Part shown: piece after piece, positions 18,968 to 54,367 of the stretch
Position numbering within the stretch: position 1 is the stretch's first letter
How the letters are laid out: every line of letters starts with the position of its first letter
Source: an uncultured Candidatus Saccharibacteria bacterium
GTDB lineage: Bacteria; Patescibacteriota; Minisyncoccia; Phycocordibacterales; Phycocordibacteraceae
Reading direction: 5' to 3'
Length of the DNA stretch: 64,000 nucleotides
NCBI GenBank assembly: GCA_964652615.1
Contig: CAZZAT010000001.1
Location: 153,886-217,885 of the forward strand
Notes under the pieces: model-generated
Databases searched by the model: none
What the model saw: only the letters and a program-made list of their open reading frames with translations
What the model was told of the DNA's origin: nothing
Position numbers and translations under genes: made by a program

Positions 18968-19020
18968 ACGTCCCGTTTACCGAAACACAAAACCGCCTAG
19001 ATAGGCGGCTTGTGTGAGTG

Positions 19021-19094
19021 CGCGAGAGACGGGACTTGAACCCGCAACCTCCGCCGTGACAGGGCGGCGCTCTAACCAGTTGAGCTACTCCCGC
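19021..19094 (-). tRNA. tRNA-Asp(GUC)
   Basis: Manual fold: GCGGGAG acceptor, anticodon stem CCGCC/GGCGG with loop CTGTCAC, T-arm GCGGG-TTCAAGT-CCCGT, discriminator G. 74 nt. Confidence 0.85.
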
Positions 19095-19198
19095 AAATAG
19101 TGCGTTCGGAGGTTAACGGCTGTGAGAGGCGCGTGTCACCCGCGGATCGAACGTAGAGGGAATATAGCCTCTTTTATCGGAGGAAGCAAGGTTATGTG

Positions 19199-19270
19199 TG
19201 CCGGCGGGTGGAGTCGCGCCACCGTCTAGGGTTTATGAGTCCCTCGTTCTAACTCTTGAACTACGCCGGC
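19199..19270 (-). other. non-canonical tRNA-like element with CUCAUAA (CAU) anticodon loop; possible degenerate tRNA-Ile2/Met pseudogene
   Basis: Perfect 7-bp acceptor GCCGGCG/CGCCGGC and loop CTCATAA. But an A:A mismatch closes the anticodon stem, there is no G18G19 in the D-loop, and the T-loop CGCGACT lacks the U55C56 consensus. Confidence 0.3.
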
Positions 19271-23700: not shown

Positions 23701-24405
23701 CTAATATTGACGAAAGCTTCTCAAGTGCTGGTTCGCGAGAATTGCAAGCCTTGAGCCAGACGTATCATCAAGTTCGTGGCCAAGAGAAGGATATTCTATC
23801 CACGCACGTACGGCGGCGTTCTCCGCAGACGAGAAAATCTTCTGTTGAGACTCCAACGGAACGATGGTGTCACGACCGCCATGAAGAAACACGAACGAGC
23901 GCTTGAATGTCTTGATCGCGGACAAAAGAATATCCGTGTCGGGCAGGGTGTTTAGCAACGGCTTCGTCGTCTCAGGATTTCGCCCGCAACCGCTTCCTGC
24001 GAACACTACCGTATCCATGGCACAAAGCACGGACGGAAGACCGAGGAGGGTCGTCCCTCCGAACGAAAGCGCGATGCTGTGCAGACGCGTGCTTTCGGGA
24101 AGTAAACGCTTCCTTGCGTAATCGAAGGCTCGAGCGACATCTTCGCACTCCTGCTCGAATGTCTTTCCCTCGAACTGCTCTTTCTTATTTTCGGCATCCA
24201 AACGACCCGTGTGTATACAAATGACATGGTGATCGTGCCGCAGAAGTTCGACAAGTTCATTGTCCCAGGAGTCTCCTGACGGAATATGCCCCCCGTACAA
24301 CCCCTTCAAAACAAGCACCGCATCAGCTTCTTCTTGTGCAGCGGGATAGTGGTAGACGCTTGTTTTGGTTCCTTTGAAAGGAGACTCCAGGGTATGCTCG
24401 CTCAT
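23701..24405 (-). CDS. alpha/beta-hydrolase fold protein (dienelactone-hydrolase-like)
   Basis: ALSFGG nucleophile-elbow-like motif, HGGRD, C-terminal GHELDD. Confidence 0.65.
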   Translation of the reverse strand: MSEHTLESPFKGTKTSVYHYPAAQEEADAVLVLKGLYGGHIPSGDSWDNELVELLRHDHHVICIHTGRLDAENKKEQFEGKTFEQECEDVARAFDYARKRLLPESTRLHSIALSFGGTTLLGLPSVLCAMDTVVFAGSGCGRNPETTKPLLNTLPDTDILLSAIKTFKRSFVFLHGGRDTIVPLESQQKIFSSAENAAVRAWIEYPSLGHELDDTSGSRLAILANQHLRSFRQY

Positions 24406-24455: not shown

Positions 24456-25364
24456 TCAGCGGAACTCCGGCGGAATCTCCGTATCGACGAAGCTAATGTC
24501 GTTCCCAACCTGATCTCGCGCCGCGACTGCGAAGCGATACGTCGTCGGAGGAAACTTCGCCACTGTCCACCCCGGCAGACCGTGGTGATACTCCCTGAAG
24601 GCGTTCGCCACTTTTGTGTATTCGAACGGGAAATAGAGACAGAAGCTCCTCGTCAGGCGAAGGAGCAGGTACCGCCCTATCATGCCATCGAAGACGTGGC
24701 TGTATTGGGATTCTACAGTGGTACCAGGCTCAGCGCCCGCAATGTGCTTCGAGAAAAGCGGAAGACTGAGTCCCTTCCTTATCTCTGAGTCGCTATAGGT
24801 TCCTTGAAAATCCCGGTGCACAACGCGTCGAATCTCAAGGTTTCCGTCAATTTCCGCGAGCGTATTCTGCCCATGAAGCTCGGGAAGCAGACCCCGCTTC
24901 GAAACGAGTGCGACCCAGGAATCCAAGAGCGGTCCTGCGACGCGTTCAACGAAATACTCCATCGGCAACCGCCCTCCGTGCATCCTGACGATTTGCACGG
25001 CCAACGGCTCGTCCTCGGACGCATGAGGGTCGTGCGCGTACAACGAATGGTACGGCATGAGTACATGGCCGCCCGCGTGATGCGGATAGGGAACGACTTC
25101 TCGATAGACGATTCCAGAACCTTCGTAGTCGCCGCCTTGAATGACGACTCCTAGCGATTCGGGAAGGAACGCATACCGGTCCGGATGCAGATTTGCATCG
25201 CAAAATGCCCGCAGATCGGAACAGATGGCGATGCTATGCTCGATCGAACTTCTTTGAAGCCTTCGAACGAAGCGGAAATGCTTCTTGTCGAGATCGGTCT
25301 TGATATAAACCCGGAACGCATCTTCTGTCAGAAGCGTCCGGGTCGAGCTCGTCGGCTGCGCCAA
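24456..25364 (-). CDS. IucA/IucC-family (siderophore synthetase C-terminal / FhuF-like) protein; TTG start; possibly the 3' part of a gene split by an in-frame stop
   Basis: ELHGQNTLAEIDGNLEIRRVVHRDFQG resembles the IucA/IucC C-terminal core. At 302 aa it is about half the size of a full NIS synthetase. Confidence 0.4.
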   Translation of the reverse strand: MAQPTSSTRTLLTEDAFRVYIKTDLDKKHFRFVRRLQRSSIEHSIAICSDLRAFCDANLHPDRYAFLPESLGVVIQGGDYEGSGIVYREVVPYPHHAGGHVLMPYHSLYAHDPHASEDEPLAVQIVRMHGGRLPMEYFVERVAGPLLDSWVALVSKRGLLPELHGQNTLAEIDGNLEIRRVVHRDFQGTYSDSEIRKGLSLPLFSKHIAGAEPGTTVESQYSHVFDGMIGRYLLLRLTRSFCLYFPFEYTKVANAFREYHHGLPGWTVAKFPPTTYRFAVAARDQVGNDISFVDTEIPPEFR

Positions 25365-25694: not shown

Positions 25695-25945
25695 TAATCA
25701 CACAAACTTTCTTTTATGTCTACTCCATTCCAGAGAGCAAATACCAACAGCAAGAAAACAACCAAGAGGGCAATCGGAAAAGAACCGCGATTTTCGATGA
25801 TTTGGTCGGTGAGCACCCCGGCCAGAATACATAGCTAGAAAGTCCAACTTGCGTTGGACTTTCTAGCTTTTTAGAGACGAACAGGTCTGGCGGACTGGAA
25901 CCAAAATTAGGCGCTTTAAGCCAGCCAGCTGGTCTCTGAACCGTG

Positions 25946-26261
25946 TTGCGGGGGCCGGAATCGAACCGGCGTCTGGAGGTTCTTTTACACCTTTTGTTTC
26001 CAAAAGGAATGGACTATCCCATGATCCCTGTAGGATCCTCCCATTATAGTCTCTGAACCTTACTCAATATGCATTGAGTCTTGGCTGCTGATTGCCGAAT
26101 CTTCCTGTTTTTTTGCATTCGCGCCCATCCTTTCAGATCACGCTGTAGCACAGAAAGCTCTAACGGTATTCCAGCAATTTAGAGAGTTTTTCCACTACCC
26201 GTTACCGGATAGGGTCACGTATTCACATGAGCCTCCCGAGGTACCTCTCCTCTACCCCGCT
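25946..26261 (-). tRNA. initiator-like tRNA-Met(CAU) interrupted by a group I intron after anticodon position 36 (exon1 26261..26227, exon2 25981..25946)
   Basis: Exon 1 is AGCGGGG-TA-GAGG-AGAGGTA-CCTC-G-GGAGG-CTCAT. Exon 2 is AA-CCTCC-AGAC-GCCGG-TTCGATT-CCGGC-CCCCGCA-A. Spliced, this is a canonical 71-nt tRNA with loop CUCAUAA, A11:U24, a 1:72 mismatch and GG in the D-loop. Confidence 0.7.
25982..26226 (-). ncRNA. group I intron (245 nt) in tRNA anticodon loop; P, Q, R, S elements present; no ORF
   Basis: Intron starts GUG (guide sequence complementary to the exon CAU) and ends in G. P-like AAATTGCTGGAA (26169-26180 rc), Q-like AATCAGCAGC (26084-26093 rc), R-like GTTCAGAGACTA (26047-26058 rc), S-like GGGATAGTCC (26011-26020 rc). 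Same insertion site as the Azoarcus tRNA-Ile intron. Confidence 0.75.
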
Positions 26262-26382
26262 ATAGTTTCGCTTCTCGTATGAAGCGTTTTCAGAGGATAC
26301 CACTGGGGAAGATACTTTTCAAGATTTAACCATTAGTATGGGATTCATATATCTGGATAAATTATGATGCTATAATTTAAGC

Positions 26383-26772
26383 ATGCCTCTGAAAGATCAA
26401 AACAAAAGAAAGCTATATCACGCGAAATACATGAAGGAAGTGTGGTATCCGAAAAATAAAAAGAAACATATCGGATATGTAAAGAGGAATAAGCTTCGAG
26501 TTGCAGAATTTATTGATGAATACAAACGAAAGCGAGCATGTATGGATTGTGGGTTCTCTGGAGAAAAATTCCCTTTTGTTTTGGATTTTGATCATATTAA
26601 AGGTAAACCCTCAAAGAGGTTCAGTATTGGAAGTTGGTCACGGTCAGTATTGAGCATTCAAGCAATTGAACAAGAAATCAGAAAGTGTGAGATAGTATGC
26701 GCAAACTGCCATCGCGTACGCACCTTTTCAAAATCCAAAAGGAGGACTACTAAATCTCCCCGAATTCCTTAA
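26383..26772 (+). CDS. HNH endonuclease (free-standing, AT-rich)
   Basis: CMDCG...LDFDHIKGK...VCANCHRVRT, a classic HNH/zinc-finger core. The gene is markedly AT-rich and divergent from the intron-containing tRNA 120 bp away. Confidence 0.8.
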   Translation: MPLKDQNKRKLYHAKYMKEVWYPKNKKKHIGYVKRNKLRVAEFIDEYKRKRACMDCGFSGEKFPFVLDFDHIKGKPSKRFSIGSWSRSVLSIQAIEQEIRKCEIVCANCHRVRTFSKSKRRTTKSPRIP

Positions 26773-50059: not shown

Positions 50060-50073
50060 AAAAGAATCTGTTG

Positions 50074-50146
50074 TGCACCCGGCAGGCCTCGATCCTGCGA
50101 CCGCCTAGGTATAAGCTAGGTGCTCTACCAACTGAGCTACGGGTGC
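50074..50146 (-). tRNA. tRNA-Ile(UAU)
   Basis: GCACCCG acceptor, GCTC-AGTTGGTA-GAGC D-arm, anticodon stem CCTAG/CTAGG with loop CTTATAC (UAU), T-arm GCAGG-ATCGAGG-CCTGC. 73 nt. Confidence 0.8.
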
Positions 50147-53899: not shown

Positions 53900-54306
53900 G
53901 GGGGTGACCGGCTTTGACGGTCTGTTCTTTGAGAGACGTGCGACGCGGCGGAAGTTTGCTGTCCGCCTACAAACGCAAACAAACATACTTGCAAAGAACA
54001 CTCTTGCAAGCGTGAAGTCTCCATACTTCGGTATGTCTGATTTCGCGTTCGCTTACGCGCGCGCCTAACGGCCCTTCGCCTAAGCGACATCCAGCCAGCT
54101 GAGATCTCATAGTCTCTGGTTTCTGGGTGTAATTACCTATGAGATGGACACTCTGTTTTCCCGTGCAGAGGTCGAGATAAGGGATACGATAGGAGCGGTT
54201 TCGTGCCGGTTCCTCGCGCCCTATCGGAATGCCTAGCCGGCACTACGCGTCGTAGACTCGCTCTCAAAGACGGATTCGGACTGGAGTTCGATTCTCCACA
54301 CCTCCA
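53900..54306 (+). ncRNA. ssrA: tmRNA (ssrA)
   Basis: 5' GGGGGTGACCGGCTTTGACGG (acceptor strand plus the GGNUUYGACGG box). 3' GGAG-TTCGATT-CTCCA T-arm followed by CACCTCC pairing the 5' GGGGGTG, then A-CA. About 407 nt, directly downstream of smpB. Tag ORF not confidently identified. Confidence 0.7.
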
Positions 54307-54367
54307 CAGCTATACTCATTTTGACTATACTCAAAATGACTGGAAATACCGCCTCTCAGGCGGTTTT

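Follow-up and report, generated by a model that had tools for sequence, protein, structure and literature searches.

A group I intron inside an initiator tRNA gene of Patescibacteria and a neighbouring HNH gene that may assist its spread

Introduction

That group I introns can interrupt the anticodon loops of bacterial tRNAs is a long-standing finding. They typically lie between nucleotides 33 and 34 of tRNA-fMet, 34 and 35 of tRNA-Leu, and 36 and 37 of tRNA-Arg, according to a 2026 survey of 4,934 complete genomes (PMC13011429). They are common in the tRNA genes of Patescibacteria, where nearly all have been classed as IA and none as IC (Nakagawa et al., mSystems 2026, PMC13011429); Table S3 of that work, covering 95 complete Patescibacteria genomes, has Met(CAT) introns at 33/34 (two) but not at 36/37. 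The survey left out draft genomes and does not mention free-standing nucleases (PMC13011429). Here we describe a 64,000-nucleotide stretch (the window) of contig CAZZAT010000001.1, from a genome labelled Candidatus Saccharibacteria (assembly GCA_964652615.1). In it, an initiator-type tRNA(CAU) gene is interrupted directly after the anticodon by a group I intron of 245 nucleotides (nt) that contains no open reading frame (ORF), and a free-standing gene for an HNH endonuclease lies next to it. We put the probability of the reading as a whole, i.e.: a split initiator tRNA, a group I intron and homing assisted by the HNH nuclease, at about 85%.

A close structural parallel is the tRNA-Ile intron of Azoarcus, which is located in the anticodon loop (PMC13168695). 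The two introns share a site in that loop directly after the anticodon, a compact and ORF-less build, the layout P1-P2-P3-P4-P5-P6-P7-P3'-P8-P7'-P9 and a GNRA loop at the end of both P2 and P9. The 5' exon of the Azoarcus gene ends in CAU, which pairs with a GUG guide through a U.G wobble, a precedent for position 36/37 in a CAU tRNA. In contrast to ours, the Azoarcus intron sits in tRNA-Ile2 of a proteobacterium, measures 205 nt and has no 73-nt P5 extension; one relative of our intron (L023, 206 nt) is closer to it in size. We know of no partner endonuclease for the Azoarcus intron.

As for the host gene, initiator-tRNA introns are on record at 33/34 (Biniszkiewicz 1994 as cited in PMC2686568; PMC13011429). 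The cyanobacterial tRNA-fMet intron (Biniszkiewicz, Cesnaviciene and Shub 1994; Paquin et al. 1997) resembles ours in its initiator host and its patchy spread, and its uneven distribution among related strains was interpreted there as lateral transfer. Unlike ours, it lies before the anticodon, at 33/34, and its endonuclease, where present, is an intron-encoded PD-(D/E)XK enzyme (PMC13011429). Within the phylum, the tRNA-Asn introns of Patescibacteria (PMC13011429) share with ours the HNH family and, in several cases, the core strings AATTGCTGGAA, AATCAGCAGCCAAG, GGTTCAGAGACTA and GATAGTCC. There are also differences: introns in tRNA-Asn, tRNA-Asp and tRNA-Tyr of the phylum are found at 35/36, and those in tRNA-Met at 33/34 (PMC13011429); the tRNA-Asn introns, classed as IA, carry an extra hairpin (20-40 nt) between P7 and the 3' strand of P3, where ours has 4 nt; and their HNH genes lie inside the intron, whereas ours lies outside it, upstream of the tRNA.

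The arrangement of intron and nuclease recalls collaborative homing in phages, in which a free-standing endonuclease targets the insertion site of an intron, the intron immunizes that site, and both are inherited together (PMC3984707). The cases are F-CphI with the psbA intron of cyanophage S-PM2 (Zeng, Bonocora and Shub 2009) and the Aeh1 system (Bonocora and Shub 2009), both as reviewed in PMC3984707, and T4 mobE with the I-TevIII intron (PMC2790892). There too an ORF-less or defunct intron stands beside a free-standing endonuclease gene. The phage cases concern protein-coding genes and have biochemical proof, whereas ours concerns a tRNA gene on a bacterial chromosome and comparative evidence. 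We found no description of this combination of features in the searchable literature.

Results

A group I intron splits a tRNA(CAU) gene

The split gene is encoded on the minus strand. Its 5' exon (26227..26261, 35 nt; AGCGGGGTAGAGGAGAGGTACCTCGGGAGGCTCAT when read from 26261 to 26227) covers nt 1-36 in standard numbering and ends in CTCAT, with CAU as the anticodon. Its 3' exon (25981..25946, 36 nt; AACCTCCAGACGCCGGTTCGATTCCGGCCCCCGCAA) covers nt 37-73, starts with AACCTCC and does not encode the CCA end. The 245 nt between them (25982..26226) begin with GTGAATACGTGACC and close with GTGTAAAAG (26226..25982). Run in intron-aware mode (-i), ARAGORN reported a tRNA-Met(cat) with a 245-nt intron and the junction 'ctcat-Intron-aacct', identical to that read from the letters, and drew the joined 71-mer as a normal cloverleaf with the anticodon loop CUCAUAA. 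The Rfam group I model RF00028, whose gathering score is 50, matched end to end over 26237..25990 with 64.7 bits (E 4e-14 across the 64-kb window). Neither default ARAGORN nor the Rfam tRNA model found the split gene anywhere in the window. We regard the identification of intron and tRNA as nearly certain.

A previous reading of the letters alone (the sequence-only reading) had given the exon and intron coordinates, the strand, the 71-nt product and the 245-nt insert exactly, base for base, including the terminal G of the insert at 25982. The strings it had matched to the group I elements P, Q, R and S fall in the correct order at 26180..26169, 26093..26084, 26058..26047 and 26020..26011. It had named an Rfam search and an intron-aware tRNA call as checks, and both agreed with it: the RF00028 match lies above the gathering score, and ARAGORN recovers the CAU tRNA with the same junction. 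The cloverleaf drawn by ARAGORN contains every feature that it had listed (the CUCAUAA loop, A11:U24, the 1:72 mismatch, G30:C40, G31:C39 and A29:U41). Its warning that the ORF track would not reveal the gene extends, as seen above, to default tRNA callers. It had also rightly dismissed a transfer-messenger RNA (tmRNA) at this place: the tmRNA model matches the 3' exon over no more than 18 nt, a T-arm-like stretch (14.8 bits vs 47). The true tmRNA of the window, a one-piece molecule of about 408 nt, is at 53900..54307 on the plus strand (Rfam 92.8 bits); its predicted tag, AKNTLASVKSPYFGMSDFAFAYARA, is unusually long.

Uninterrupted homologues fix the junction

The predicted ligated junction reads CTCATAACC, joining CAU to AACC. 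A 22-mer spanning it was found without an interruption in at least 120 contigs of JGI metagenomes, and in 26 of the listed intron-less contigs the tRNA is identical over 71 nt to the spliced product. These homologues place the insertion between nt 36 and 37 (CAT/AACC), as the sequence-only reading had proposed. The same point is marked by two Logan contigs of run SRR15237804, both identical to the flanks of the window: the last base of one is precisely 26227 (…GGCTCAT), and the first base of the other (L003) is precisely 25981 (AACCTCC…). Such breaks are expected where continuous and interrupted versions sharing their exons split the de Bruijn graph. A merely different intron is disfavoured as their cause, because a shared final G would shift the break, and the continuous form could belong to another species, since the exons are conserved beyond the k-mer length. 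The contig ends thus fix the junction as far as assembled sequence can, without thereby proving polymorphism within one strain. Another Logan contig, L002 (SRR15237806), stops at 26235, 8 nt before the exon-intron junction (…CCTCGGG), which may point to a variant tRNA in the same sample with a different anticodon stem.

For some relatives, ARAGORN called a tRNA-Leu(CAG) with the intron shifted by 2 nt. We rejected this call because the intron-less homologues read CAT/AACC and the acceptor and D arms are of initiator type, and because group I rules require U before the intron and G at its end.

The intron belongs to a family of at least 53 species

A pattern linking the exon end, the guide and element P was run against the GTDB genomes, one for each species. 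Among 57 matches, 53 are the same split gene: ARAGORN resolved 48 into a CAU tRNA divided at the same position, three are cut by contig ends, and two Gribaldobacteria loci (L011, L059) hold, on inspection, a complete intron ending in G. The other four (Streptomyces, Pseudomonas, Blautia and Latescibacterota) are chance matches. Every real match with a lineage in its title is from Patescibacteria, the remainder being titled 'bacterium'; the labels include Paceibacterota/Parcubacteria, Kaiser-, Sung- and Gribaldobacteria, and 'Saccharibacteria' as a submitter label. Intron lengths range from 206 to 341 nt, and all 48 ARAGORN-parsed introns end in G. RF00028 scored above threshold in all 14 relatives tested (60-97 bits). 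The closest relative of our intron is 87% identical, and the closest GatA protein among the matching GTDB loci is 70% identical. The family is missing from many close relatives of its carriers, and this patchy distribution fits repeated gain and loss.

A search of viral contigs for the same intron found only one related core, in a phage contig (IMGVR_UViG_3300028601_000047, L181:9784-9828, minus strand) that carries AAATTGCTGGAA, AATCAGCAGCCAA, GGTTCAGAGACTATAATGG and GGTATAGTCC. This core sits in sequence reading as DNA polymerase III alpha (DnaE-like), not in a tRNA, and scores below the RF00028 gathering score.

Covariation supports the predicted fold

All intron elements are given on the minus strand. 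The internal guide GUGACCC (26212..26218; Rfam alignment) places G26218 opposite U36 in a wobble at the 5' splice site. The sequence-only reading had the exon CAU pairing with a GUG, with U.G at the splice site; this pairing stands, but not its location in the first three intron bases, as the partner is the second GUG (intron nt 9-11), inside GUGACCC. Intron nt 1-2 pair with nt 7-8 as an extension of P1, and these pairs co-vary in relatives (columns 37/46 and 38/45, with 19 and 17 double changes in the 43-copy alignment).

P2 follows as a hairpin with a GNRA loop, GUAA (26195..26212; six of nine pairs with compensatory changes), and the 5' strand of P3 (26186..26182) lies just upstream of element P (J3/4 and the 5' strand of P4, AAATTGCTGGAA, 26169..26180). 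P5 continues into a long unbranched extension (26095..26167) for which RNAalifold predicts a GAAA cap and an A-rich 3' bulge; in helices 5-8, the P5 region, 18 of 21 pairs co-vary. Element Q (the 3' strand of P4, AATCAGCAGC, 26084..26093) leads to the P6 hairpin (26057..26085), which shows compensatory changes, and to element R (J6/7 and the 5' strand of P7, 26047..26058), invariant in 43 sequences. The 3' strand of P3 (26042..26038) begins only 4 nt (UAAU) after P7, leaving no room for the P7.1/P7.2 insert typical of IA introns. Then come the P8 hairpin (26023..26038; five of six pairs with compensatory changes), element S (J8/7 and the 3' strand of P7, GGGATAGTCC, 26011..26020) and the P9 hairpin with a GAAA loop (25990..26007; six of seven pairs). 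Elements P, Q and S were placed by the Rfam alignment and the covariation analysis. G26051-C26012 is the predicted guanosine-binding pair, an assignment that we take by analogy to G264-C311 of Tetrahymena. The complete layout is therefore P1-P2-P3-P4-P5(+extension)-P6-P7-P3'-P8-P7'-P9 and an 8-nt tail, UGUAAAAG, the last base of which is omega-G (25982).

Structural support comes from an alignment (A1) of 43 copies, folded with RNAalifold and with P7 added as a pseudoknot. Standard pairs fill 97.7% of cells, compared to 39-42% when partners are slid by 1-3 columns. Changes on both sides occur in 48 of the 75 pairs, and none of 500 shuffles reached the observed values. Compensatory changes back the P1 extension, P2, P3, P5, the P5 extension, P6, P8 and P9. 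Across the aligned copies, no change is seen in the U.G wobble, J3/4, the P7 pair, J8/7 or the terminal G.

Several observations weigh against this model or lend it no weight. P4 and P7 are complementary and invariant, hence compatible with the model but uninformative, with no covariation behind them. P1 contains a C32xC mismatch in all 43 homologues, and no convincing P10 could be drawn by hand. Moreover, the exon end GGCTCAT and the guide GTGANCC were set by the search pattern, so that their invariance is not independent evidence. On a related note, guide position 5, the sole free base of that pattern, is always C, though G would pair perfectly.

Regarding class, the locus has the hallmarks of group I: the RF00028 score, a P1 with U.G, the P3-P4-P6 and P7-P3'-P8 core and omega-G. 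Traits of IC3 type are present as well (P2 without P2.1, neither P7.1/P7.2 nor helices from P9.1 onwards, and P2 and P9 both capped by GNRA loops), yet the simple P5 of that subgroup is replaced by the 73-nt unbranched extension with its A-rich bulge. This arm is a lineage feature and is missing in the 206-nt relative L023. On this modelled structure the layout resembles the compact IC3 tRNA introns, and we describe the subgroup rather than assign it. Other family members vary in P6: L014, L040, L041 and L048 carry inserts there of ~75-95 nt, giving introns of 336-341 nt (L014, L040, L048) and 320 nt (L041). The insert of L040 is GC-rich, and none of the four holds an ORF of the size of a homing endonuclease gene; they may be peripheral elements or remnants of earlier insertions.

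The conservation of the fold bears on whether the locus is a dead tRNA gene with a decayed intron, the working initiator gene lying elsewhere in the genome. Our view of 64 kb would leave space for such a gene. Against that, the exons are identical to the intact genes of the 26 metagenome contigs, all core elements are intact, and compensatory changes over 43 species speak of ongoing selection on the fold. The gene order gatC-gatA-p203-tRNA is also the same with and without the intron, which makes this an orthologous and probably single-copy locus. A dead gene is, in our judgement, scarcely credible.

The interrupted gene is an initiator tRNA

The spliced tRNA has an A1xA72 mismatch with A73, A11:U24, and an anticodon stem with G30:C40, G31:C39 and A29:U41. 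The tRNA body is the same in relatives and in intron-less homologues, with variation at position 1: mostly A, in several cases C (C1xA72), and in a few U (U1:A72). In E. coli, the spliced tRNA matches at four places per genome, which equals the number of E. coli initiator genes, and the closest of these (78% over 71 nt) falls on the tRNA-Met gene flanked by argG and rimP, which we take to be metY. A second CAU tRNA in the window (19198..19270) shows the elongator pattern, G1:C72 and U11:A24.

Two points run counter to this identity or to what it implies. The three G:C pairs expected of an initiator anticodon stem are reduced to two by A29:U41, and the genome may have a second initiator gene outside the 64 kb that the tRNA census covers. 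Regarding the first, AU/GC/GC stems are found in the initiators of mycoplasmas, and relative L023 has the full GGG/CCC stem. The gene could alternatively encode an elongator tRNA-Met or a lysidine-modified tRNA-Ile2, as in Azoarcus. The insertion site shared with the Azoarcus tRNA-Ile(CAU), the A:U pair at 29:41 and an A instead of the canonical C at position 1 would agree with that. Against it stand the 1:72 mismatch with A73, A11:U24, the C1xA72 of relatives and the complete stem of L023, the best E. coli match beside rimP with its four places per genome, and the presence in the window of both a separate elongator-type CAU tRNA and a tRNA-Ile(UAU). We consider a non-initiator identity very improbable. 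Because of the 1:72 mismatch, A11:U24, the metY-type match and the separate elongator CAU tRNA, the gene is, on sequence features, an initiator tRNA-fMet with one non-canonical trait, its two G:C pairs. It is the sole initiator-type tRNA in the window, and splicing is therefore probably required for translation initiation.

The tRNA-Ile(UAU) (gene TAT) lies at 50073..50146 on the minus strand. UAU tRNA-Ile is uncommon in bacteria, where AUA is usually read by a lysidine-modified CAU tRNA. Together with the single elongator-type CAU tRNA of the window, it indicates that this lineage may decode AUA without TilS.

A free-standing HNH gene accompanies the intron

Between p203 and the tRNA, divergent from the latter, a gene on the plus strand (26383..26772) encodes a 129-aa HNH endonuclease (PHROG_2255, 1e-23; PHROG_3106, 4.5e-22). 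Its start is 121 nt from the 5' end of the tRNA and ~160 bp from the intron insertion site, and it is the only copy in the window. The protein has the motif CxxC...H...CxxCH, and is 31-36% identical to the products of HNH genes inside Patescibacteria tRNA-Asn introns, with catalytic and zinc residues aligned; C53, C56, H71, C106, N108, C109 and H110 are invariant between it and those intron-encoded genes. An exact-protein look-up gave no record. An extended -10-like sequence, TGcTATAAT, lies in 26364..26382 (plus strand), its end 8 nt upstream of the HNH ATG. Conservation of its core, TGATGCTA, among the HNH-bearing loci suggests an mRNA that is leaderless or has a very short leader.

The order gatC-gatA-p203-tRNA is common to intron-bearing and intron-less loci, so that the same orthologous locus is being compared. 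HNH homologues (61-74% identity) occupy the same slot in the same orientation in 20 of 48 informative intron-bearing loci and are missing from all 87 informative loci without the intron (Fisher p 4e-11). In conservation the nuclease equals GatA, with median pairwise identities of 73.5% and 70%, respectively. Two of the 20 copies (L007, L055) are clearly degenerate, and the other 28 intron-bearing loci lack the gene. Spacers between p203 and the tRNA measure 330-547 nt with the HNH gene and mostly 40-250 nt without it. On a neighbour-joining GatA tree of 77 tips, loci with and without the intron are intermixed, and the intron state changes at least 19 times. All HNH-bearing loci fall in one major clade. 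Within the GatA clade of the window, 16 loci have intron and HNH gene, eight the intron only, 12 neither, and none the HNH gene only (p 1.7e-4). The frequent loss of the HNH gene without loss of the intron means that the two are separable, and in one direction only.

Some of our data call for caution in taking the nuclease as a partner of the intron. Pfam gave no match for the 129-aa ORF at E<=0.01. The intron-bearing loci come from GTDB metagenome-assembled genomes and the intron-less ones from JGI metagenomes; the GatA tree has no bootstraps, and the locus counts are phylogenetically non-independent. Furthermore, with ~160 bp between HNH gene and insertion site, recombination replacing the whole segment could remove both without any target relationship.

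Intron and nuclease as a candidate homing pair

Based on these comparisons, we lean slightly towards a scenario in which the HNH gene and the ORF-less intron spread by collaborative (trans) homing. The free-standing nuclease would cut the uninterrupted tRNA-fMet gene at the insertion site or close to it; an intron-bearing copy, used as the template for repair, would bring in the intron and often also the nuclease gene ~160 bp away; and the intron, splitting the target, would protect its own chromosome. Several signatures of homing are seen here. The nuclease gene adjoins the interrupted gene, and the intron has no ORF. The association, though correlative, is one-way: the nuclease never occurs without the intron. 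The spread is patchy, and the nuclease is found intact, degenerate or absent. Lastly, the nuclease is akin to intron-embedded ones.

The main rival to homing is physical linkage with shared ancestry. It holds that the intron is immobile, inherited vertically and lost many times, and that the HNH gene, selfish or derived from a phage, is unrelated to it and homes to the spacer between p203 and the tRNA. Such an account draws on the confinement of HNH loci to one major GatA clade, the 28 intron-bearing loci without HNH, and the HNH family being common in viral contigs (169 relatives). The identities of HNH and GatA also correlate weakly (rho 0.22), a result that does not tell vertical from horizontal inheritance. 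What it fails to predict is that, in a single clade with both kinds of loci interleaved, the HNH gene should be present in 16 of 24 intron-bearing loci and 0 of 12 intron-less ones, or that it should so often be lost while the intron stays and never the reverse. It also leaves aside that members of the same HNH family are embedded in other tRNA introns of the phylum. We deem it rather unlikely.

The intron might otherwise spread with no endonuclease, by reverse splicing into tRNA-fMet transcripts via GUGACCC and then reverse transcription and recombination. Both the complementarity between the guide and a conserved anticodon loop and the fact that most intron copies (28/48) have no adjacent HNH gene suit this route; no reverse transcriptase is apparent near the locus, though, and the one-way association with HNH would be left unexplained. 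We find it improbable as the explanation, while noting that reverse splicing and collaborative homing are not exclusive.

Splicing itself would follow the established group I pathway, applied here to the predicted fold. Nucleotides 30-36 of the anticodon loop and stem would pair with the guide GUGACCC, with a wobble at U36.G. An external guanosine bound in the P7 pocket would cut after U36. The terminal G would then replace this guanosine in P7, and the freed 3'-OH of U36 would attack the bond after the terminal G, ligating CAU to AACC and yielding the mature loop CUCAUAA.

Other features of the locus

Upstream of the tRNA, a consensus scan gave a tentative promoter-like site (26294..26322, minus strand) with TTGAAA, a 17-nt gap and TG-n-TATCCT; a similar motif, TTGNNN...GTGGTA, is found in the spacers of other HNH-bearing loci. 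The spacer alignment further revealed a 5'-leader hairpin, GCTTC-ATACGA-GAAGC (26270..26285, minus strand), just upstream of tRNA nt 1. It is kept in most HNH-bearing loci (L013, L021, L035 and others), with a compensatory GCCTC/GAGGC in L035, and may act as a leader element or in processing. A perfect 16-bp hairpin (25833..25868, minus strand) that follows the tRNA at a distance of about 78 nt is a possible terminator with a weak T tail.

Two of the genes downstream, both on the minus strand, encode a 302-aa siderophore-synthetase-like protein with weak IucA/IucC C-terminal and FhuF-like matches (24456..25364) and an alpha/beta-hydrolase-like protein (23701..24405); neither is expected in a reduced Patescibacteria genome. 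In four relatives (L019:4752-4901, L057, L059 and L011) the split initiator gene is followed directly by elongator tRNA-Met and tRNA-Asp. The Met-Asp pair of the window lies 7 kb away (19020..19270), and we therefore see in it a rearranged former tRNA cluster.

Discussion

Taken alone, this intron is a further member of a well-known class, and one that is expected in Patescibacteria. The adjacent HNH gene, which the sequence-only reading had passed over, is the more informative part. What is new is the extent of the family, at least 53 species, and the combination of site and host gene, which is not listed for the phylum. Judged by sequence comparison, the element combines features known separately: the insertion site of the Azoarcus tRNA-Ile intron, the host gene of the cyanobacterial fMet intron, the core and nuclease family of the tRNA-Asn introns, and the arrangement of phage homing systems.

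For annotation, the consequence is that default tRNA finders miss the gene, and genomes of this lineage therefore seem to have no initiator tRNA, a gap that touches at least 53 species genomes. For the organism, a minimal-genome bacterium would rest its translation initiation on a ribozyme. The patchy distribution of the intron offers a large natural data set on intron gain and loss.

A strict one-way association, as seen for the HNH gene, is what the collaborative-homing model predicts for comparative data, a model so far backed by only a few phage cases. We give an even chance to intron and HNH gene being a natural chromosomal pair of this kind, cutting at the anticodon loop, with the phylum showing the nuclease both beside the intron ('before') and inside it ('after'). 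To our knowledge this would be the first chromosomal collaborative-homing pair outside phages. If true, Patescibacteria would display both stages of the proposed route to mobile group I introns.

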